The translations under genes were made by a program, and so were the position numbers. Shown one piece after another: positions 2,712-60,613 of a DNA stretch of 64,000 nt. The notes beneath the pieces were generated by a model that was not told the origin of the DNA, did not search any database, and worked only from the letters and a program-made list of their open reading frames with translations. The DNA comes from a virus (lineage: Duplodnaviria > Heunggongvirae > Uroviricota > Caudoviricetes), in IMG/VR virus record IMGVR_UViG_3300010882_000010. One strand, given 5' to 3'. How positions within the stretch are numbered: position 1 is the stretch's first letter; every line of letters begins with the position of its first letter.

Positions 2712-2736
2712 TAAAGTAAAATAATTGAAATTAACT

Positions 2737-3609
2737 ATGAGTAAAAGAAATTATTGTTTTAATTTTAATTTTGATTATGAATTAAATGAAAGAGTTTTAG
2801 TACCAAAAAATCAAAAAGAGTATTATTATATTTATAAAATTGAATCAACTTTTAAAAATAAAAATGGTGAAAAGTACTATTATATTGGTCAACATACTAC
2901 AAAGAAATTTCCTGATGCATATTGGGGTTCTGGTAAAAAGTTGAATGATTGTTACAAAAAATATCCAATGGAAAAGGGTAATTGGAAAAAGATAATTTTA
3001 GAATTTGCCGATAGTTTTGAAGAAGTATTGAGATTAGAAAAAGATTTTATTGGAGATTTGTTTAATACAGATGATAATTGTTTAAATCTTAAAGAAGGAG
3101 GAATAGGTGGACGCAATTCTAGAGAAATTCAAGATAAAATTAATGAACAAAATAGAGGTAGAATACCTTGGAATAAAGGAATTAGTTCTTCTGAAGAAAC
3201 TAAGCAAAAATTAAGAGAAAATCATGCCGGTGGTCCTAAAAAAGGATACAATCATACAGAGGAAACAAAACAAAAAATTAGAGAAAAAAGAAAATTGCAA
3301 GTTTTTACAGAAGAAACTCGTGAAAAATTAAGAAATAAAAAGAATTCAAAAGAAACAAGGGAAAAAATTTCAAAAGCCCTTAAAGGTAAAAAACATACAG
3401 AAGAAACAAAAAGGAAGATAGGAAAAGCTAATAGTATTGCACTTATTGGAAAAAAACATTCAGAAGAGACAAGAAAAAAACAATCGGATTCTCATAAAGG
3501 TAAAAAAATTTCTAAAGAAGCAATAGAAAAAAGAACAGAAACAAGAAAAAGAAATCGAGAATTAAAACAAAATGAACAAACAGATATTATTAGCAATACC
3601 AACATATAG
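2737..3609 (+). CDS. Free-standing GIY-YIG homing endonuclease with NUMOD3 repeats
   Basis: YIYKIE...YYIGQ, conserved E in VLRLE, N in LNLKEGG; repeated HTEETKQKI units; ATG 2737 preferred over TTG 2725. Confidence 0.88.
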   Translation: MSKRNYCFNFNFDYELNERVLVPKNQKEYYYIYKIESTFKNKNGEKYYYIGQHTTKKFPDAYWGSGKKLNDCYKKYPMEKGNWKKIILEFADSFEEVLRLEKDFIGDLFNTDDNCLNLKEGGIGGRNSREIQDKINEQNRGRIPWNKGISSSEETKQKLRENHAGGPKKGYNHTEETKQKIREKRKLQVFTEETREKLRNKKNSKETREKISKALKGKKHTEETKRKIGKANSIALIGKKHSEETRKKQSDSHKGKKISKEAIEKRTETRKRNRELKQNEQTDIISNTNI

Positions 3610-4168
3610 TCCATATATTCATTATCAATGTATGGAATCATTTTATGGAATAAGAAAACCTGATGGATATGAAATAGAAGTACAATTTGTATGTGGATAT
3701 TCGGCAGCACAAGCACGTAATAAAGCTTGTAATCAGGCAATTAAGAGGGGATTTGACTACTTGTTAATGATAGACGCTGATCAAATTGCGCCAGCAGATA
3801 CTTTAGAAAAGTTAATTGCTTGTAATTCAGAAGTTTCATGTGGTTGGGCTATGCAGTGTGTGAATGACAATAGGACTAATATCTCAAAGTATGTGGCAGA
3901 GAAATCTTGGTATGATTTCTTTAGAATTGAAGAGTTAGATAGTTTGCCAGGTATTATTGAAGCAGATGCTATTGGTTTTGCATGTGTAATGATTAAGGTT
4001 TCTGTTTTTCAAAAATTAGAATATCCTTATTTTCGCTACATAGAATATGGAGATGGTACATGTCTTTCAGAAGATTTACAATTTAGTAGTTCTTTAAGAG
4101 CAAAAGGAATTCCAATAGTTGTTGATAAGAGTTTAAACTTGCCTCATCAAAAAATAATCAGCATATGA
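3572..4168 (+). CDS. GT-A (family 2-like) glycosyltransferase
   Basis: ILLAIPTY, ARNKAC, DYLLMIDADQ (DxD), GFACVMIK, LSEDLQFS. Confidence 0.8.
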   Translation: MNKQILLAIPTYSPYIHYQCMESFYGIRKPDGYEIEVQFVCGYSAAQARNKACNQAIKRGFDYLLMIDADQIAPADTLEKLIACNSEVSCGWAMQCVNDNRTNISKYVAEKSWYDFFRIEELDSLPGIIEADAIGFACVMIKVSVFQKLEYPYFRYIEYGDGTCLSEDLQFSSSLRAKGIPIVVDKSLNLPHQKIISI

Positions 4169-4803: not shown

Positions 4804-4917
4804 ATGAAATTTTTTAAACTAGGAGTTTTAATCATATTGGCAACAATTTTGCCATGTGGTTTTTTAGTATTAGGAGTTTTCATCTATCAAGAATTTAAAA
4901 AATTAAAAACAGAATGA
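4804..4917 (+). CDS. Small membrane protein
   Basis: Hydrophobic 37 aa ORF with ATGA overlap into the next gene. Confidence 0.5.
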   Translation: MKFFKLGVLIILATILPCGFLVLGVFIYQEFKKLKTE

Positions 4918-6323
4918 AGTACTTAATTTCAGATGCAGAAAATGCAAATTATCTTGCAAAAGTAGCAGAATTAAAAGAAGTTGAAAAAGTTCCTGGCACA
5001 GACCGGTTGTATTACACTACAATTGATAATAGAACAGTCATTATTGATGATTCTTATCAAGTTGGAGATGTTATTGTTTACTTTCCATCGGGTTGTAAAA
5101 TTAATGGAGAGCTGCTTTCATCTTTAAATGCTTTCCGTAATGAAAATTTGAATGCTGATCCTAATCCAGATAAAACAGGATTTTTTGAAGATAATGGTCG
5201 GGTTAAAATGATTAAATTGCAAAAAATGTACTCAGAAGGTTACATCATTAGATGGAATCTTTTTGAAGCTTTTCTCTATGATAAAGGAATTAAAGGGGTT
5301 GTAGCTTTAGTTAGTGAAACTTTTGACAGTGTAGAACAAGATAAAGTAAAATTGCAAATTTGCGAAAAGTACGTAGTAAAGATAAAAGAATCGGGTGCAA
5401 GTATGGGAAGTAAACGTGCTAAAAAAAGTGCAATAGAGTTAATTTGTGATGACCAATTCAAGTTTCATGTTAAAGTAACAAGAATGGGAGAAGTTGCATG
5501 GAAGTTGACGCCAGAAAAGCATATCAATGTTTCTTGCAAGTATCATGGAACATCGGGAATTTCAGCTAACATTTTGTGCAAGAGAGAATTAGGATGGTGG
5601 GAAACTAAGTTTAAAAAATGGTTTGGATTTAAATTCCAAGAACAAGAGTACAAGGATGTTGCAGCAAGTAGAACTATTATTAAAGGAGTCGGTTCAGTTA
5701 ATCAAGATGCAGCCGATTTTAGGGGTTTTGATATTTGGAATCATGTGCATAATTTGATTAAGTCTAAATTATGGCAAGGAATGACTTTGTACTATGAAAT
5801 TGTTGGTTACACTCCAGGAGGAAAAATTATCCAAAAAGGTTACGATTATGGTTACAAAGCACCGGTTGATGATAAAATTGAAAACTACAAAATGGGAGAA
5901 AATTTTGGAGTTAAGGTTTATCGAATTACTTTGACGGATCCAAAGGGTAAAGTTTTTGAATGGTCAATGAACCAAATTGAAGATTTTTGTCAAAACACCG
6001 GCTTGGAAACTCCATTAGTTTACTTTGATGGTAAAGTTTCAGAGTTAATTGAAAAGGATAGATTTGATAATATTGCAAAAGCTGGTGAATGGGTTGGATT
6101 AAGTACAGGCGATCCAAAAGATATCTACAATTATTTTGCAACCATGAATCCTATGGAAAAGGATTGTCCAATTTGCAAAACTAAGGTTCCATTTGAGGGT
6201 GTAGTAATTCGGTTTGAAGGTAAAAATCGCTATGATGCTTTCAAATTAAAGTGTAAAGCTTTTGATGAAAGAGAAAGTAAAGCACTTGATAAAGGTGAAT
6301 CTAACATGGAAGATGAAGCCTAA
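4914..6323 (+). CDS. RNA ligase, DRB0094/Rnl2-like family
   Basis: N-terminal OB-like domain (VPGTDRL...VIVYFP); motif I KYHGTS, III YYEIVG, IIIa VKVYRI, IV EGVVIR, V FKLKC. Confidence 0.8.
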   Translation: MKYLISDAENANYLAKVAELKEVEKVPGTDRLYYTTIDNRTVIIDDSYQVGDVIVYFPSGCKINGELLSSLNAFRNENLNADPNPDKTGFFEDNGRVKMIKLQKMYSEGYIIRWNLFEAFLYDKGIKGVVALVSETFDSVEQDKVKLQICEKYVVKIKESGASMGSKRAKKSAIELICDDQFKFHVKVTRMGEVAWKLTPEKHINVSCKYHGTSGISANILCKRELGWWETKFKKWFGFKFQEQEYKDVAASRTIIKGVGSVNQDAADFRGFDIWNHVHNLIKSKLWQGMTLYYEIVGYTPGGKIIQKGYDYGYKAPVDDKIENYKMGENFGVKVYRITLTDPKGKVFEWSMNQIEDFCQNTGLETPLVYFDGKVSELIEKDRFDNIAKAGEWVGLSTGDPKDIYNYFATMNPMEKDCPICKTKVPFEGVVIRFEGKNRYDAFKLKCKAFDERESKALDKGESNMEDEA

Positions 6324-7371: not shown

Positions 7372-8196
7372 ATGAAAAGATTTTTTCTGATGGTCGCTGC
7401 AGCCATTGCATTTGCAGCATGTTGCACAAGTTGCACAACAGTAGATTCGGGATCAGTAGGCGTACGTTTTAAGAAATGGGCTGCAAATTCTGAAGAACAA
7501 GGTGGTGTTATTGGTACCGCTAAAGGATGGGTTTGGTATAATCCATTCACACAGAACATCTACGAATATCCGATTTTTATCCAAAGAAAGTCGTATGATG
7601 ACATCGAAGTAAATTCAAAAGATGCTAGTATCTTTAAAATTTCGCCGACTATTGCTTACCGGTTAGATCAAGACAAAATTACCTACATCTTTGTTAAGTA
7701 TCGTAAACAATTGCATGAAATTGAAGAAGGTTACATCCGTACTTGTATCTATGAAGCATATCGTACTGTTGGTAATAGTTTTACAGCAGACTATTTGATG
7801 AGTAATCGTGAAGAGTTTGAGAGTCAAGTTCGTAAACGTCTTGAAAAATCCCTTATGGAAGAAGGATTTATCGTTGAAGAATTTACAGCAAAAATTGAAC
7901 CTCCAACAAGTTTGAAAAATGCAATTGATACCAAGAATGAAATGGTACAAAACGCATTGAAAGCTGAAAATCAAGTAAAAGAAGCAGAGGCAAAAGCTAA
8001 AATTGAAATTGCTAAAGCAGAAGGTACTGCAAAAGCTATGCGTATTGAAGGTGAAGGTATTGCAGCATACAATAGAAGTGTTCAGCAATCTTTAACACCA
8101 TTGCTTGTTCAAAATAATGCAATTGACAAATGGGATGGAAAATTACCTACTTACATGGGCGGTGGTGCAATTCCGTTTATCAATATTGCACGATAA
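7372..8196 (+). CDS. SPFH/band 7/prohibitin family protein
   Basis: Signal/lipobox; VDSGSVGVRF, SKDASIF, REEFESQV, AIDTKNEM, alanine-rich coiled coil, KWDGKLP. Confidence 0.9.
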   Translation: MKRFFLMVAAAIAFAACCTSCTTVDSGSVGVRFKKWAANSEEQGGVIGTAKGWVWYNPFTQNIYEYPIFIQRKSYDDIEVNSKDASIFKISPTIAYRLDQDKITYIFVKYRKQLHEIEEGYIRTCIYEAYRTVGNSFTADYLMSNREEFESQVRKRLEKSLMEEGFIVEEFTAKIEPPTSLKNAIDTKNEMVQNALKAENQVKEAEAKAKIEIAKAEGTAKAMRIEGEGIAAYNRSVQQSLTPLLVQNNAIDKWDGKLPTYMGGGAIPFINIAR

Positions 8197-8217
8197 TCTA
8201 AAATTACAATTACTACA

Positions 8218-8454
8218 ATGACAGTATTTTTTGTTTGGGGATTACCTCTAATTTTAGTCTTAGTTATGCTATGGATGTTTGGGAAAACGTTCAATAGTAA
8301 AGATGAAAAAGACTCACCATTTGCTCTGTTACACAACATCTTGTGGTTTTTAGGAGCTTTAGCACCAATTGTGGGGTGGATTATTTTCGCAATACTTTTG
8401 ATTTGGTATCTAATTAAGTACAACGATGATGATTATGATGTTAAAGATAATTGA
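8218..8454 (+). CDS. Small two-TM membrane protein
   Basis: Hydrophobic segments; ALAPIVGW motif. Confidence 0.65.
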   Translation: MTVFFVWGLPLILVLVMLWMFGKTFNSKDEKDSPFALLHNILWFLGALAPIVGWIIFAILLIWYLIKYNDDDYDVKDN

Positions 8455-8512
8455 TTTACGCGAACTTTCATGAATTACAGACCATAAGAACTAATTTTAC
8501 TACAATTACTTT

Positions 8513-8540
8513 AAGAGGATCAAATTTGGTCCTCTTTTTC
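8513..8540 (+). terminator. Rho-independent terminator
   Basis: AAGAGGATC-AAATTT-GGTCCTCTT followed by a T tract. Confidence 0.75.
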
Positions 8541-8550
8541 ATTTTAAATT

Positions 8551-8604
8551 GTTGGTAACTTTTTCTAAAATTGTAGTTTGGTAAAGAAAAAAGTGTTATT
8601 TTTG
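8551..8604 (+). promoter_or_regulatory. Class I bipartite early promoter
   Basis: GTTGGTAAC at 8551, TATTTTTG at +46; directly after a terminator. Confidence 0.7.
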
Positions 8605-8641
8605 CATTGTTAAAAATCAATCAAAATTTAAAATTTTTAAA

Positions 8642-8830
8642 ATGAGCAAGAAAATTCAAACATTATTTAGTTTAGGTGGAAAACCGAAAACAAGAAAAGT
8701 TAACTTTAGTAAAAATTCTTCGGAGATTGTTAATAAAACAAAAAAGCAATTTACGAAAATTGAACGTTTTGAAGATCCTGAAACAGGTGAAATTATTACA
8801 ATAGAAGCAACTTACGAAATTTTAAGTTAA
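8642..8830 (+). CDS. Hypothetical protein
   Basis: 62 aa ORF, first gene after the promoter. Confidence 0.6.
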   Translation: MSKKIQTLFSLGGKPKTRKVNFSKNSSEIVNKTKKQFTKIERFEDPETGEIITIEATYEILS

Positions 8831-8835
8831 GAGCA

Positions 8836-9432
8836 ATGATAAACAACCGAAATCTTTTACGGAAAATGATTAGTGATGGAATTAGAGATGGTTTCATAGT
8901 TGAACAAAAACATCCGGAACTTGATCTTTATCTTTACAACTACACAAGAAAGTGCACTTTTGAAAAAGCTTGGAATATTGCTACTTTACTGTGTCGAGGA
9001 TTGATTTTGGACGGTTCTGGTAACATCATTTCCTATCCGTTAGGAAAGTTTTTCAATTGGGAAGAACTAAGCCCAGAAGAGAGAAAAAGACTGTCTATGC
9101 TCAAGTTTGATGTTTTGGATAAGGTAGACGGATGTTTAGATAAAGAAACCGTGGTAATAACAGAAAAAGGAAGAAAAACTATTGGATGGATTTGTGAAAA
9201 CAATTATCGTGGAAATGTTTTATCATATGATCCTATTAAAGATGTTTTTGAATACAAGAAGATTAACAATTCTTGGATAAGAGAAAACATCCAAAATTGG
9301 TATCAATTAACATTAGAAGATGGTACTATTGTTAAAATAACAGGTAATCAGAAAGTTTGGTGCTCAAATATCAAAGCATATCGGAAAGTAGAGGACTTAG
9401 ATGGTAGTGAAGAAATAGTTGTAAAAAGTTGA
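8836..9432 (+). CDS. rnlA: T4 Rnl1-type RNA ligase N-extein (aa 1-99) fused to split intein N-part (aa 100-198)
   Basis: LCRGLILD...PLGKFFNWEE; motif I KVDG followed directly by intein block A CLDKETVVIT. Confidence 0.88.
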   Translation: MINNRNLLRKMISDGIRDGFIVEQKHPELDLYLYNYTRKCTFEKAWNIATLLCRGLILDGSGNIISYPLGKFFNWEELSPEERKRLSMLKFDVLDKVDGCLDKETVVITEKGRKTIGWICENNYRGNVLSYDPIKDVFEYKKINNSWIRENIQNWYQLTLEDGTIVKITGNQKVWCSNIKAYRKVEDLDGSEEIVVKS

Positions 9433-9454
9433 TAATTCATCAAATTTTTGTGGG

Positions 9455-9462
9455 TATATAGT
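9455..9462 (+). promoter_or_regulatory. Putative late promoter of homing endonuclease gene (TATATAGT)
   Basis: Same context as 2704. Confidence 0.45.
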
Positions 9463-9478
9463 TAAAAGAGTATACCAA

Positions 9479-10546
9479 ATGAAAAAGTTTTGTCCAATTT
9501 GTAAAGAAGTAATGACGGGTCAACATTTAAAAAAATGCGCTAAAAAGTATGGGATTGAAAAATCATATGAAGACTTAAGATGGGAAGCTATGGATTTTAA
9601 TTATTGGTTTTTAATCAAAGATGTTTTAAGAGAATATCAAGAAGGATATTCAGTTTCAGATATTTCACAAAGATATGATGTATTATATTGTGATATTGTT
9701 ATTATCTTAGAACATTATGAGATTAAATTACGTGGTATAAAGGAGTCTCGAAATGAAAAATCGGTAGAAAAAGGAAAGAAAACATGTTTAGAAAACTTTG
9801 GTGTAGAAAATCCCTCACAATGTGAAAGCATAAAAGAACAAAAAAGAGAAACATTTACTAAAAATTTTGGAGTGGACAATGTTTTTAAAGCTGGTATTTT
9901 TATTGAATGGTTGGAACAATTTATGCTTGAAAAGTATGGTAAAAAACGAATTACAAATCCTGAAAAAATTTCGGCAGCCCAGCAAAAATTTACACAAGAA
10001 GAATGGGAATTAAGATTAGAGAAAATTCGAAAAACTTGTGAATTAAAGTTTGGTTATGATAATTATTCTAAAGTACCGGAAAGAAGAGATGATATTTCGA
10101 AAAAAGCAAAAATACGATGGGAAAATTATACTGATGATGAAAAAGCTAGATTATTATCTGTAACATTTCAAAAGGCACCAAATTATGTTTCAAAATTAGA
10201 AATACGGATACAAGAATTATTGAATGAATTACAGATTGAGTACACTACACAAAAGTTTTTTAAACGGCATAGCTATGATTTTTTTATCGAAGAATTTGGA
10301 ATAGTAATTGAAATAAATGGCGATTTTTGGCATGCTAATCCAAAATTTTACAAATCAGATGACTTATTGCCATTTCCTGGAGAATCTAAATTAGCTAATG
10401 AAATTTGGGAAAAAGATGTTCAAAAAAAGCAAATAATAGAGGATTTAGGTTTTCGTTTGATTATAATATGGGAAGATGAAATGAAATGTACAAATGAAGA
10501 ATTGGTTAGACTATTAATCTCTAAACTTGAAAATAATGAAAATTAA
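9479..10546 (+). mobile_element. Free-standing homing endonuclease (Vsr/DUF559-like C-terminus, xGVxN repeats) between the split-intein halves
   Basis: FGVENPSQ/FGVDNVFK/FGYDNYSK repeats; YDFF...VIEINGDFWHANP...GFRLIIIWE. Confidence 0.8.
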
Positions 10547-11459
10547 GAAAATTGAAAAAATCGAACATAATTCATTACGATATGATATCGAAGTAAAAGA
10601 TAATCACAATTTTTTTGCTAATGGACTTTTGGTCCATAATTCTTGTGGGATTTCCTATTATTCCGGAGGTATTTATGGTATTGCAACAAGAGGCTCATTT
10701 AGCTCTGAACAAGCTATTTGGGCTACTGAATTATTGAATACTAAGTATAGTCATTTACTACCATACTTAGATTGGCAAAATTACACTTTTATTTTTGAGA
10801 TATGTTATGATAAAAATCGTATTGTATGTCATTATGATTTTGAAGATATTGTACTGTTAGCTATTATAGAGAATAAGACAGGAAAGAGTTTATCAGTTGC
10901 AGATATTTACAAACATTACAGTAAGGATTTCAGGTTAGTACATTGGGAAGAAAACTTGTCTGGAATGTCTTTTGAAAAGATTAAAGCACTAAACAAAGAA
11001 AATGAAGAAGGTTACGTTTTACACTTTGAAGATGATACACGAGTAAAGCTAAAATTTGCAGATTATTGTAGATTACACTCCATAATCACAAACTTTTGTG
11101 CGCGAGATATTTGGGAAGCTTTAAAAGATGGTAAGGATTTGACTACAATATTGGAAGATGTACCAGATGAGTTTGATAAGTGGGTAAGATACAAGGTTTT
11201 AACTCTAAGACAAGATTTTCAGATGTACTTTGACAAAGTAGTAGAAGCAAGAAAAAACGTAATTTTGGCTTTATTGCCAGAAGTTAGACATAACAAAAAG
11301 GAATTTGCAAAAATTAACCTACGATTAAACAAAGATAAAGGAATTGCTGGTATGGTTTTTTCTTTAGAATCGGGAAGAGATATTTCACAAAAAATTTGGG
11401 AAAAGGTTTATCCTCCTCATGAAAAAGCATTTACGAAAGGATTAGAAGATGAAGAGTAA
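10536..11459 (+). CDS. rnlA: Split intein C-part (35 aa) fused to Rnl1-type RNA ligase C-extein
   Basis: MKIKKIEKI...YDIEVKDNHNFFANGLLVHN|S; then IATRGSFSSEQA, FIFEI, EEGYVL, RVKLKF. Confidence 0.88.
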   Translation: MKIKKIEKIEHNSLRYDIEVKDNHNFFANGLLVHNSCGISYYSGGIYGIATRGSFSSEQAIWATELLNTKYSHLLPYLDWQNYTFIFEICYDKNRIVCHYDFEDIVLLAIIENKTGKSLSVADIYKHYSKDFRLVHWEENLSGMSFEKIKALNKENEEGYVLHFEDDTRVKLKFADYCRLHSIITNFCARDIWEALKDGKDLTTILEDVPDEFDKWVRYKVLTLRQDFQMYFDKVVEARKNVILALLPEVRHNKKEFAKINLRLNKDKGIAGMVFSLESGRDISQKIWEKVYPPHEKAFTKGLEDEE

Positions 11460-11462
11460 ATT

Positions 11463-11517
11463 GTTAGTAACTTTTAAAGTAAACTGAAAAATGATATCAG
11501 AATTTTCAGTATTTTTA
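11463..11517 (+). promoter_or_regulatory. Class I bipartite early promoter
   Basis: GTTAGTAAC at 11463, TATTTTTA at +47. Confidence 0.7.
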
Positions 11518-11548
11518 CCGAAGTTTAACAAAATCAAAATTTAAAGAA

Positions 11549-11830
11549 ATGGAATTACAACTTTTACTACATGTTTGGTTATTTTGGTTACCATTAGTTT
11601 TTATCATTGCTATTATAGTAGCATGTTGTTTTACTTTTGATATGCCGAATGGTCATTGGAAAAGAGATTGGATACCAATTGCAATTGGATTAATTCCAAT
11701 AACCAACATGTTAATGGCTTTAATTGCAATAATTGTTTATTCTCAGGAAGTTTTTAAAGTGAAGTATGATGCAATAGACAAAGCAAAGATACGGAATAAC
11801 AAGTTTGCACGTTGGATAACAGGACAATAA
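11549..11830 (+). CDS. Small membrane protein
   Basis: Two hydrophobic segments, GLIPITN motif. Confidence 0.65.
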   Translation: MELQLLLHVWLFWLPLVFIIAIIVACCFTFDMPNGHWKRDWIPIAIGLIPITNMLMALIAIIVYSQEVFKVKYDAIDKAKIRNNKFARWITGQ

Positions 11831-11843
11831 TTAAAAAAAAGAA

Positions 11844-12677
11844 ATGACAATAACAATTTTTTGGATAATTTACGGGATTTCCATTTTAGTAACTATGTTG
11901 ATAATACTTGGTGATGTTTTTATTAACAAAGAACCATATGATAAGGCATACTTTGGAATTACTATAATGGCTTTTATTCCTATTATAGGAACAATAGCAG
12001 CACTAATATCAACAATAGCATTTTTAAGTGGTGCTTTAGTTGTTAAAAATCAAAATCAATCAATAATCAAAAATCAAAAAGAAATGACACCATTAGAAAA
12101 TCAAAGACTTCAAGAGTCTGAAAAGAAAGAAAATTTTGGAAAAGTACTGATGTTTTTAGCAGCAGTTTTCTTTGTACTATTTTTAGTATGCTTTATTCCG
12201 CGCGAACCAAAAACAGAAACAGTAAAATTACCAACTTTTGGGTTAGAAACTAAAAGTTATACTTTTCAAACTTTGGAATATCATGATATAATCCAAGTTT
12301 TAAGTAAAGATGCTTGTCGATTTGAGTTAGAATTTATCAGCAGGTTTAAAATTAATAAAGAGAAAATTCAAGAAATTCATGAAAAATATCGATCTCAAGA
12401 GCTATTATTTAGTGGAATAGAGAATGAAATTAAATGGAATTTTATCAAAGAAGCAAGAGATTATTTCGGAATGGAAATGTTAGAAGGAGATTTTCAAAAT
12501 AATGTGAAAGTGCGAATTGATACTATACTTAGAAACATGGGAATTGAAGTAGAACATGTTGCAATGAAAATAATACCAGAAGAACATTTGAAAGAATTAT
12601 TGGAAGCAAAAACAAAAGCAATAGAATTAAAAGCTGAAGCTGATAAATATAACTACATTAACAAAAAATTACAATAA
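11844..12677 (+). CDS. Membrane protein with divergent SPFH-like C-terminal domain
   Basis: VLSKDACRFELEF...KIQEIHEKYR aligns by eye with NSKDASIFKIS...KITYIFVKYR of 7372. Confidence 0.55.
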   Translation: MTITIFWIIYGISILVTMLIILGDVFINKEPYDKAYFGITIMAFIPIIGTIAALISTIAFLSGALVVKNQNQSIIKNQKEMTPLENQRLQESEKKENFGKVLMFLAAVFFVLFLVCFIPREPKTETVKLPTFGLETKSYTFQTLEYHDIIQVLSKDACRFELEFISRFKINKEKIQEIHEKYRSQELLFSGIENEIKWNFIKEARDYFGMEMLEGDFQNNVKVRIDTILRNMGIEVEHVAMKIIPEEHLKELLEAKTKAIELKAEADKYNYINKKLQ

Positions 12678-44405: not shown

Positions 44406-46178
44406 ATGAAATTATTAAACGAAAAACAAATCTTTGAAGAATGGTCACCAATGATCATGGAAAAAGCTGGTGTAGAAGACAAAGGTAAATTACAATGGTT
44501 GTCAAAATATTGTCATTTTCATGCGTTAAATGAAAGTTCTTTTATTCCTAATATGCCAAGTTGGCCACTTGCTAGCTTGCAAAACACTCCAGGTATGGGT
44601 AATGTTCGCACTGGTACGATTGCTGGTGGAGCAAACAACTTCTACAATGGAACAACAGGTTCTGGTGATAAATTCCCAAGCCTACTTCCTCTTGCTATTC
44701 AAGTAGGCGCAAGAACAGTAGGTTTTGATATTGTGCCGGTTATCCCAATGAACGGTCCTAGCGGAGTTCTTACTTACTTAGACTATGTTTATGCTGGTGG
44801 TAAAAACAATCCGTCAATCTCTCAAGATGCTGAATTAGAATATCCTGCAGATGAACTTCAAGAAATGCCAACTGTTATTAAAGCTGATATTACACTTCCT
44901 ACTGGTGAATTTTTCGAAATTGGAAAACTTTACAATGCTGGTGATTTGGATATGATCTATGTTGGTAAATCACGTGTAGATGGTTTCTCTATTTTCAGAA
45001 TTTTAAAAGAAGGTGAAAAATACAGAACTACTGCAAGTAAAGCTTTACAAACTTCTGCAACTGTTGCAGGTGTTACTATTGCTGATGTTTTTGGTATTGG
45101 ATCAACAGAAGAACTTGAAACAAGTAAAAAAGATGCAACTGGTGCAATTGTAGCTGGTAGTGATGTTGTTATTGGTAACTCAAAACCGTCATTAGTTAAA
45201 GCTCTTGAAGATCACATTCAAGGTTTTGCTGGTTCTGGTGCTTTTGATAGTGATGATTGGACAGGTAACTTTGTAAACGGTAAGATGATTGCTGAACCTA
45301 TGCGTAGAGGTATTGGAGAACAAACTCCATTCAGAACTATGGGTCTTCAAGCTTTCACAAAATATGTTGAAGCTGGTACTTTTCAAGTTGCTGCTACTGT
45401 AACTACAGAACAAATCCAAGACTTGAATCGTCAATTTGGTATTGATGTTGTAGGTATGGTTGAAAACTCACTTACTAATGAAATTTCACAACACATCAAT
45501 AAACACATCTTGAGTCGTGCTTTTGCTCTTGGTTGGTCAAACCATAAACAATTCTCAATTGTTGAAGGTCAATCTTTGAACATGACTGCAGTTCCTGGTG
45601 TGGCTTCTGTTGTTGTACGTCATGTAGGTAAAGATAATAGTATGCAAGATATGACAGTTGCAGGCTTTGTTGACTATGCAGCTGGTGGTCCTGGTGCTTC
45701 TTTCGAAAATCAATGGACAATTCAAAGACGTGTATTCTCTAAAATCCTTGCTGCCGGTAATATTATCGCACAAAGAGGACGTAGAGGACCTGCTAACTTT
45801 ATTGTAACTAACTTGCAAATTGCAACAGTATTACAAGATAGTGCACAATTTACTTTTGCTCCTATGGCTAATACTATCAACCAAAATAACGGATCTTTAT
45901 TCCCAGTAGGTGCTATTGCAGGTATTACTGTTTATGTTGATCCTAATATGGCTTGGGACGATAATAGAGTACTTGTAGGACGTAAAGGTGCTGATGAAGA
46001 ACCGGGTTTAAAATTCATGCCTTACTTACTTGCTGAAAGTATCCAAACTATTGCTGAAGGAACTATGGCTCCTAAAATTGCAGTAAAATCGCGTTATGCT
46101 CTTGTAGAAGCAGGTTTCCATCCTGAAACTCAATACTTGACTTTCTGGGTTGAAACAGGTGGTATCTCAATTGTGTAG
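44406..46178 (+). CDS. gp23: Major capsid protein (T4 gp23-like)
   Basis: VVPVIPMNGPSG.L.YL, EISQHINKHIL, GRRGPANFIV, ITVYVDP, GLKFMPY, KSRYAL; follows the protease. Confidence 0.9.
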   Translation: MKLLNEKQIFEEWSPMIMEKAGVEDKGKLQWLSKYCHFHALNESSFIPNMPSWPLASLQNTPGMGNVRTGTIAGGANNFYNGTTGSGDKFPSLLPLAIQVGARTVGFDIVPVIPMNGPSGVLTYLDYVYAGGKNNPSISQDAELEYPADELQEMPTVIKADITLPTGEFFEIGKLYNAGDLDMIYVGKSRVDGFSIFRILKEGEKYRTTASKALQTSATVAGVTIADVFGIGSTEELETSKKDATGAIVAGSDVVIGNSKPSLVKALEDHIQGFAGSGAFDSDDWTGNFVNGKMIAEPMRRGIGEQTPFRTMGLQAFTKYVEAGTFQVAATVTTEQIQDLNRQFGIDVVGMVENSLTNEISQHINKHILSRAFALGWSNHKQFSIVEGQSLNMTAVPGVASVVVRHVGKDNSMQDMTVAGFVDYAAGGPGASFENQWTIQRRVFSKILAAGNIIAQRGRRGPANFIVTNLQIATVLQDSAQFTFAPMANTINQNNGSLFPVGAIAGITVYVDPNMAWDDNRVLVGRKGADEEPGLKFMPYLLAESIQTIAEGTMAPKIAVKSRYALVEAGFHPETQYLTFWVETGGISIV

Positions 46179-59361: not shown

Positions 59362-59517
59362 ATGATTGTAATGTTGATTTTATTGCTATATGCCTATCTT
59401 TTCTTACACTATCCTTACTGGTTAGAAGAAAAGAAGGTTTTAGTTGTAGAACATTACAATTATTTGAAAGAATTTTTTGAAAAACTAGAAAAAAGAAGAA
59501 ATGAAAAGAAACTGTGA
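59362..59517 (+). CDS. Small membrane protein
   Basis: 51 aa, hydrophobic N-terminus, fills a gap (not in ORF track). Confidence 0.45.
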   Translation: MIVMLILLLYAYLFLHYPYWLEEKKVLVVEHYNYLKEFFEKLEKRRNEKKL

Positions 59518-60613
59518 AAATTGTATCAAAATTTGGAGAGAACATATCACTGGACAAGTTGTCAGTGACTTAGAAAAAGAATTAGGTCTCGAAAATGGTG
59601 CAGAAAGAACTATCGAACAGATGACCAAACTTGATAATTTAGTTTGTGATGAATGCAGACGTCTCCAAGATAAGCAGATTTCATTAGAAGATCGAATGAA
59701 AATCAATGAAAAATCTCTAAGAACAAGAGTAAAATTAAAAAGCTATGTAATAATTCGTATTGATGGTAAGGCTTTTTCAACGTACACCAAAGGTCTTAAC
59801 AAACCATTTGATTATGGTTTGATGCAAGATATGATAGAAACAACTAGATATCTTTGTGAAAATATCCAGGGTGCTAAATTAGGTTATACACAATCTGATG
59901 AAATTTCAATATTGCTTACTGACCTTGATAATGAAAAGACTAACATGTGGTTTGATGGTCAAATCCAAAAGATGTGCTCTGTTGCAGCAAGTTTAGCTAC
60001 ATCAAAATTTAATCAACTCAGACTTGCACGAGAGTGTGATACATGGCATATTAAATATCCGGCAGCCGGAGAATATTCAGCAAGTAATATCATGAACTTT
60101 AAACTTGCACAATTTGATGCAAGAGTTCTTAGTTTTGAAGCTTTTAATCCACAAGAAGTTGTTAATTGTTTCATTTGGAGACAACAAGATGGAATTCGTA
60201 ATTCAAAACAAGCTTTAGGTCAAGCATACTTTTCAGCTAGCAAACTTAGTTGTAAAAATGTGGATGAAGTTTGTCAAATGTTGAGAGAAGAAAAGGGAAT
60301 TGAATGGGAAGATTTAAGAATTTTTAAACAAAGAGGATGGTGTACAATTAAGAAAAATCAATTGTGGGTTAGACCTCAAGATAATATCAGTTTCAAACCA
60401 AGACAAATTGAATCTCTTGATTTAATTGGTCAGAATACACTTGAAGTTGGTAAAATTATTGATATTATGGTACATCAAGGGAAAGAAGTACCGGGGATTT
60501 TGTATGAACGTAGTGCTTGGATAATTGATAAAGAAATTCCAATTTTTACAGAAAATCGTGAGTACATCTTAAAATTACTACCTAATTATGAGAGAGGAGT
60601 TTGTTTTATTTAA
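59501..60613 (+). CDS. thg1: tRNA(His) guanylyltransferase Thg1-like protein
   Basis: IIRIDGKAFS, PFD, GYTQSDEISILL, WFDGQIQK, FDARV, WRQQDGIRNS. Confidence 0.92.
   Translation: MKRNCENCIKIWREHITGQVVSDLEKELGLENGAERTIEQMTKLDNLVCDECRRLQDKQISLEDRMKINEKSLRTRVKLKSYVIIRIDGKAFSTYTKGLNKPFDYGLMQDMIETTRYLCENIQGAKLGYTQSDEISILLTDLDNEKTNMWFDGQIQKMCSVAASLATSKFNQLRLARECDTWHIKYPAAGEYSASNIMNFKLAQFDARVLSFEAFNPQEVVNCFIWRQQDGIRNSKQALGQAYFSASKLSCKNVDEVCQMLREEKGIEWEDLRIFKQRGWCTIKKNQLWVRPQDNISFKPRQIESLDLIGQNTLEVGKIIDIMVHQGKEVPGILYERSAWIIDKEIPIFTENREYILKLLPNYERGVCFI

Follow-up and report, generated by a model that had tools for sequence, protein, structure and literature searches.

A probable fractured RNA ligase gene in a large uncultured phage, with split-intein halves and a homing endonuclease gene behind the catalytic lysine motif

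Fractured genes, in which a host gene is divided over two open reading frames (ORFs) that end and begin with the halves of a split intein, have been known since the work of Dassa et al. in 2009. The hosts in that study were gp41, IMPDH, DnaE, NrdA, NrdJ, DNA ligase, and terminase only (PMC2677866), and the intein hosts listed in surveys include RtcB and archaeal DNA ligase. The same layout is present at positions 8,836 to 11,459 of a stretch of 64,000 nucleotides (nt), here called the window, taken from the Caudoviricetes record IMGVR_UViG_3300010882_000010 of IMG/VR. The host in this case is an RNA ligase of the Rnl1 type, which appears to be new to the literature; no description of an Rnl1-hosted intein was found in published work. 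The locus probably represents a fractured gene that still functions, encoding an Rnl1-type RNA ligase of a large phage known only from uncultured material.

The divided RNA ligase gene

Three ORFs are located on the same strand, at 8836-9432, 9479-10546, and 10536-11459 (Table 1), as had been described in the initial annotation. That annotation had also recognized the layout as that of a fractured gene and proved right in every structural respect: the host gene is contained in two adjacent ORFs, the first ending with the N-terminal (IntN) and the second beginning with the C-terminal half (IntC) of a split intein, and the endonuclease ORF between them has a start and a stop codon of its own. 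The N half comprises 198 amino acids (aa), IntN beginning at Cys100 (nt 9133), and is closed by TGA followed by TAA. The start of IntC overlaps the endonuclease stop codon at 10544-10546; if the alternative start codon TTG at 10527 were used, IntC would have 38 aa and VHN would be followed by Ser39 (nt 10641). The cassette of IntN, endonuclease, and IntC sits exactly between Gly99 of motif I and the native Ser of the ligase.

Motif I, which reads KVDG here, houses the adenylylated lysine. The Rnl1 profile phrog_562 was matched over positions 14-108 by the N half (2.8e-16) and over positions 107-363 by the C half (1.7e-42), a division which points to one ligase cut at one point. PF09511 gave 34.7 bits on the N half (cut-off 28.3) and 26.8 bits on the C half. 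The C-extein could be aligned with the T4 Rnl1 structures 2c5u, 5tt6, and 9do4 (E about 1e-12), with the nucleotidyltransferase motifs III (FE..NRIV), IV (EGYV), and V (K-x-K) in register, and the N-extein alone had no significant match in the PDB because its sequence is too short. With the T4 RnlA equivalog model TIGR02308 only 50 bits were obtained, far under the cut-off of 242.25, and the ligase was therefore filed as Rnl1-like and not as an orthologue of T4 RnlA. The nearest annotated relatives are actinophage genes for "RNA ligase", with 33-40% identity.

The exteins, whose spliced product is not contiguous in the DNA, were joined locally before alignment. After joining, motif I (KxDG) and motifs III, IV, and V follow each other contiguously, and the alignment with five intein-less actinophage RNA ligases (Atuin, Sham, StarPlatinum, Wakanda, and Seahorse) was continuous and gapless at the junction. 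The window reads DKVDG/SCGISYY at this point, the intein-less actinophage ligases DKKDGSLGILY, and ten closer intein-less relatives from metagenomes have KxDG-SCG at the empty site. A Ser at +1 is native to the ligase family, and the earlier proposal that splicing would restore KVDG-S is thus matched by the intein-less homologues. As judged from these alignments, the locus is a T4-type (Rnl1-like) RNA ligase gene cut right after the catalytic lysine motif.

Both intein halves scored above the curated cut-offs of the hidden Markov models (HMMs) for intein termini: IntN gave 31.0 bits with TIGR01445 intein_Nterm (cut-off 24.5) and IntC 35.9 bits with TIGR01443 intein_Cterm (cut-off 15.6). PF14890 remained slightly below its cut-off of 35.8 on the halves alone (15.1 and 34.4), as is expected for halves. 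The block A nucleophile Cys1 is in place, and a Cys is found there in all 150 of the best 150 of 450 relatives. In IntC, the sequence YDIEV..HNFFANG..LLVHN/S contains block F (DIEV...HNFFANG) and block G (LLVHN), with the penultimate His, the terminal Asn, and Ser at +1. The assignments made in the initial annotation, namely an Rnl1 N half ending in KVDG, IntN from the Cys at 9133, an IntC of 35 aa, Ser at 10641, and the rest of the ligase behind it, agree with the coordinates and with the matches to the intein and phrog_562 profiles. A complex model of IntN and IntC, each extended by 5 aa, scored 0.88 as compared with 0.00 for the best of three controls; the runs agreed in at least 95% of the contacts, and the predicted local distance difference test (pLDDT) value of the partner was at least 82. 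In tests of such models, 51 of 78 solved complexes attained the mark, as did 2 of 108 mismatched pairs. Association of IntN and IntC is thereby predicted; as split-intein complexes have already been solved, the pass expresses likeness to those complexes and is not independent proof of binding.

In the product of the middle ORF, a Cys/His-rich segment at the N-terminus and DUF7487 repeats precede a Vsr-like catalytic core at the C-terminus. DUF7487 gave 37.1 bits (cut-off 27) and the "homing endonuclease" profile phrog_3339 was matched at 1.5e-16; the matches to Vsr, DUF559, and MTES_1575 were weak, and the curated Vsr models (Pfam Vsr, TIGR00632) stayed below their cut-offs. The core was aligned to E. 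coli Vsr (1cw0, E 1.4e-3) and to I-Bth0305I (3r3p, E 0.046). The catalytic positions are kept, namely the Asp of YDF, a Glu at the position of Vsr Phe62, FWH, and a downstream Asp, which is the signature given for Vsr-like (EDxHD) homing endonucleases (PMC2677866).

The N half has two relatives in a collection of 5.8 billion proteins, and the three genes of the cassette recur in their contigs, L007/L008 (from the JGI and Logan assemblies) and L009 (Logan). Compared with the window, the N-extein is 59-62% identical, IntN 51-58%, the endonuclease 51%, and the C-extein 50%, and 33 of the 35 residues of IntC are the same.

Splicing, ligase activity, the target of the endonuclease, and co-transcription are inferred, the three ORFs most likely being transcribed together. 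The two ligase fragments would be translated separately, after which IntN (99 aa) and IntC (35 aa) would associate into a Hint fold and trans-splice by way of a Cys1 thioester, transfer to Ser+1, and cyclization of Asn35. The product would be a ligase of 371 aa with an intact KVDGS active site. Without splicing, the adenylylated lysine would reside on another polypeptide than motifs III to V; insertion this close to the lysine would thus make ligase activity strictly conditional on splicing. Intein-less alleles are presumably cleaved by the endonuclease in the vicinity of the KxDG-SCG codons, by which the whole cassette would be spread through homing.

Table 1 Features of the fractured ligase locus (positions in the window)
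Feature	Position	Strand	Evidence
N-extein of Rnl1-type RNA ligase, 99 aa, ending K96-V-D-G99 (motif I)	8836..9132	+	PF09511, phrog_562
IntN, 99 aa and TGA stop, block A Cys1-Leu-Asp	9133..9432	+	TIGR01445
Weak RNA hairpin in the spacer, paired across the endonuclease start codon ATG 9479	9445..9485	+	Folding
Free-standing Vsr-like (EDxHD-type) homing endonuclease, 355 aa	9479..10546	+	DUF7487, phrog_3339
IntC, 35 aa from ATG 10536	10536..10640	+	TIGR01443
Ligase C-extein, 272 aa and stop, opening Ser+1-Cys-Gly	10641..11459	+	phrog_562, T4 Rnl1 structures

Block B and the competence for splicing

Several points weigh against a functional fractured gene. Block B of IntN reads TGNQ instead of T-x-x-H, the Thr being kept and the His replaced by Gln, and IntN is devoid of histidine altogether; the initial annotation was correct about the block A Cys but had overlooked the absent block B His. 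This His is the most conserved single residue of inteins and is essential in many of them (PMC6333167). Among 147 aligned relatives, the position is occupied by His in 133, Asn in seven, Asp in six, Glu in one, and Gln in none. The residue at -1 is Gly, and the compensation by a bulky residue reported in PMC6333167 is therefore not applicable here. The endonuclease gene, for which a promoter of its own had been claimed together with the Vsr-like core that was indeed found, is preceded by a 46-nt spacer (9433-9478) in which a consensus scan detected no promoter-like site on the + strand; the promoter claim is not supported. The hairpin in this spacer is not distinctive, with a minimum free energy of -9.5 kcal/mol and a z of -1.1 as compared with shuffled sequences. 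The source phage is uncultured and its record about 75% complete. Lastly, the ratios of nonsynonymous to synonymous substitution (dN/dS) obtained with L007 by the Nei-Gojobori method, 0.21 for the N-extein, 0.12 for IntN, 0.26 for the endonuclease, and 0.16 for the C-extein, are rough figures because dS is saturated.

The loss of the block B His could mean that the intein halves splice no more and either hold the ligase fragments together as a tight noncovalent clamp or leave the ligase unreconstituted and its fragments decaying. The rarity of other residues at this position and its essential role in many inteins would speak for such a loss of function, which is nevertheless unlikely on the evidence of related alleles. 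Gln is present in all five members of the intein clade to which the window belongs (window, L007, L009, P0155, and P0158; support 100/95), alleles that are 50-60% identical. Two of these, P0155 and P0158, are contiguous mini-inteins and would, if unspliced, carry about 136 aa wedged beside the catalytic lysine. Every allele compared has kept the residues that only the splicing chemistry requires (Cys1, the penultimate His, the terminal Asn, and Ser+1), and the block F Asp as well. The dN/dS of IntN lies between 0.12 and 0.21. For IntC, comparison with L007 gave proportions of 0.05 for nonsynonymous (pN) and 0.84 for synonymous (pS) differences, the synonymous sites being saturated, which indicates conservation at the protein level and not recent gene conversion. 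Every segment of the locus is clearly constrained and under purifying selection. A small subset of natural inteins, moreover, splices without the block B His (PMC6333167). Because Gln also occurs in contiguous inteins and the other splicing residues are invariant, the block B Gln reads as a functional variant rather than as decay. Six further positions are specific to the clade (W19, N28, I53, Q54, I80, and A82) and are candidate co-varying residues.

Seven relatives have Asn at block B (TGNN), and in all of them (P0075, P0078, P0095, P0117, P0119, P0130, and P0135) the intein follows KxHG, which places a His at position -2 of the extein. Six of the seven form one supported clade in the IntN tree. 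The extein His might compensate for the missing block B His in these relatives.

A functional gene could also be one in which splicing is conditional or slow, the cassette acting as a post-translational timer or switch of RNA-repair activity in infection. Control of this kind was discussed by Dassa et al. (PMC2677866), and a slower first step of splicing could result from the change in block B. A possible route would be translational attenuation of the endonuclease combined with coupled translation of the C half: the overlap of the IntC start with the endonuclease stop suggests such coupling, and the spacer hairpin lies over the endonuclease start codon. Similar hairpins were found upstream of 15 of the 16 endonuclease ORFs in the set of Dassa et al., and an overlap of the endonuclease 3' end with the downstream start was described as well (PMC2677866, Figure 4B). 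The hairpin of the window, however, is no better than those of shuffled sequences and has no counterpart in L007, whose spacer differs in length (only 6 nt). Regulation is not demonstrated by anything in the sequence, and a selfish element suffices as explanation. Both the timer or switch and the route proposed for it are improbable.

Errors of assembly or gene calling, or resemblance by chance, can hardly be entertained even for a metagenome-derived record, as the same arrangement occurs in independent JGI and Logan assemblies, the HMM scores exceed curated cut-offs, and IntN has 450 family members.

Related alleles and the wider intein family

The functional fractured gene favored above also fits the distribution of the cassette. 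At the identical site, contiguous mini-intein alleles occur in P0043, P0155, and P0158, those of P0043 and P0155 being about 136-138 aa long. The IntC-like part of these two opens with the same Met-Lys-Ile/Leu-Lys as the separate ORF of the window. Further split C halves were recovered in P0156, P0168, P0169, and P0214. Alleles with and without an intein are interspersed in the C-extein tree. Empty alleles are the sisters of the window (P0157, 99/97) and of L007 (P0165, 100/98), and the split P0156 pairs with the contiguous P0158 as its sister (97/99). P0158 was present twice in this tree, as "mini" and as "none"; the latter row was disregarded, and the conclusions are independent of it. The sporadic pattern, with empty, mini-intein, and fractured states in one close clade, is what is predicted for a homing element and fits the model of Dassa et al. 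in which an endonuclease gene invades a mini-intein. In the pair P0156/P0158, the endonuclease gene has recently been either gained or precisely lost. The linker of P0158 has the same QFP.(Y/F)H tail as the end of the longer IntN of L007 and L009.

No match was obtained by blastn of positions 8000-12000 against GenBank phages or by tblastn of IntN against 50,697 GenBank phage records, in which there is thus no cultured or annotated example. A search of IMG/VR with the N half returned one distant relative only, which matched the extein alone. The tblastn matches H31-H33, which seemed to extend into IntN, were rejected: the extension is spurious, as the genes have the usual length (349-394 aa) and no intein.

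With IntN alone, phmmer retrieved 450 proteins at E<=1e-3 from 1.84 billion representatives, and the composition of the family was determined for the best 150 of these 450 (50%-identity representatives). The match almost always ends at the C-terminus of the protein, by which these relatives are recognized as split inteins. Cys1 is preceded by KxDG in about 100 of the 150, by KxHG in about 25, or by KxEG; in a minority, IntN is located two residues further on or follows KTDEER. According to Pfam, the hosts are OB-fold RNA ligases of the PHA02142 type (61 proteins), Rnl1 (PF09511, 22), and the adenylation domain of NAD-dependent DNA ligase (2). By a purpose-built HMM of the Rnl1 N-extein and BLAST clustering, the Rnl1 group amounts to 32-37 of the best 150. 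The initial annotation had considered both the split intein and its insertion site as possibly new. This appears to hold for the literature, in contrast to the protein collections, in which 22 to 37 of the best 150 IntN relatives are Rnl1-type N halves. Judged by these matches, the locus type is frequent in metagenomes and not a one-off.

The IntN tree was built on only 99 columns and has poor resolution; its well-supported branches alone require at least four changes of host label for Rnl1 and at least seven for the PHA02142-type cluster. This suggests that the intein has moved repeatedly between ligase families that share little beyond motif I. A broader reading, which is offered tentatively and seems somewhat less probable than not, would combine these observations: a large, uncharacterized family of naturally split inteins specialized on motif I (KxDG/KxHG) of covalent nucleotidyltransferases would have switched repeatedly among non-orthologous ligase families, including Rnl1, PHA02142/DraRnl-like, and NAD-dependent DNA ligases, and the clade of the window would splice without the block B His by means of Gln73 and the co-varying residues, with no bulky residue at -1. 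If this is true, Gln73 and the co-varying residues would be a new compensatory solution for a lost block B His.

Genome context and comparison with described systems

The window is part of a viral record of 217.7 kb, in which this is the single intein locus; no second copy of the endonuclease and no other intein was found in it. All genes are on one strand, and the GC content is about 29%. The major capsid protein (44406-46178, +) is 40-44% identical to those of the Lak megaphages (Prevotella) and of the uncultured 462-kb phage LR756500. Under table 11 no interruption was seen in the genes that were examined, and nothing in them points to recoding of stop codons.

At 4914-6323 (+), 3.9 kb upstream of the fractured Rnl1 gene, the phage encodes a second RNA ligase, which belongs to the PHA02142 OB-fold (DraRnl-like) type; it is intein-less, with an uninterrupted motif I (K209-YHG-TSG). 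A Thg1-like tRNA-His guanylyltransferase (59501-60613, +; PF04446 3.4e-25, phrog_4717) adds to the RNA-repair and tRNA-maintenance set of the phage. A free-standing homing endonuclease containing NUMOD3 is located at 2725-3609 (+; phrog_314, 2.1e-35); its 3' end overlaps the start of the ORF at 3572-4168, and the ORF at 2172-2651 flanks it on the other side. Just upstream of the ligase, at 7372-8196 (+), lies a gene for an SPFH/band-7-like lipoprotein (phrog_200, 5.3e-58), which is also present in L001 (1-714); in Arthrobacter phage Atuin a band-7-like membrane protein is encoded a few genes upstream of the RNA ligase. A strong terminator-like hairpin with a 10-bp stem and a T-run (8513-8536, +) is followed by promoter-like sites at 8543-8571 and 8607-8634 and by an ORF of 62 aa (8642-8830). 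The transcription unit to which the fractured ligase gene belongs may begin here.

With this locus, the protein-level "genes in pieces" of phages come to include RNA-repair ligases, and the presence of empty, mini-intein, and fractured states in one close clade supports the model of Dassa et al. that endonuclease invasion breaks genes. The locus is a clean natural test case for ligase activity that is conditional on splicing, and the conserved block B Gln with Gly at -1 provides a natural system to study the first splicing step without His. For protein engineering, the intein family offers a stock of Cys1/Ser+1 split inteins that are possibly orthogonal.

The endonuclease has a catalytic core that aligns with those of I-Bth0305I (3r3p) and E. 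coli Vsr (1cw0), with the conserved positions named above. It differs from both in its long N-terminal region with DUF7487 repeats, and from I-Bth0305I also in being encoded between split-intein halves and not in a group I intron. The ligase has motif I KxDG-S, motifs III-V, PF09511, and phrog_562 in common with T4 RNA ligase 1 (RnlA, gp63; 2c5u, 5tt6), but the alignment ends near T4 residue 280, short of the tRNA-specific C-terminal domain of T4 Rnl1. As far as can be taken from their citation in PMC6333167, the orthologues of the Tko CDC21-1 intein likewise lack the block B His by nature while the intein is kept in the clade; the intein of the window differs from them by the Gln at block B, by Gly at -1 where these have a bulky Leu, and by being split.

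The closest resemblance is to the loci of Dassa et al. (gp41-1, NrdJ-1, IMPDH-1, and DNA ligase; PMC2677866). Like these, the locus is of phage origin and consists of two same-strand ORFs with host halves and IntN or IntC, between which a Vsr-like endonuclease gene is placed with its 3' end overlapping the downstream start. The insertion is again at a catalytic motif, and the intein belongs to the Cys1/Ser+1 class 1 inteins, with a split into about 100 and 35 aa like that of gp41-1. In contrast to the loci of Dassa et al., the upstream hairpin of the window is weak and without the TATAAATA element, the block B His is replaced by Gln, and the host is an Rnl1-type RNA ligase.

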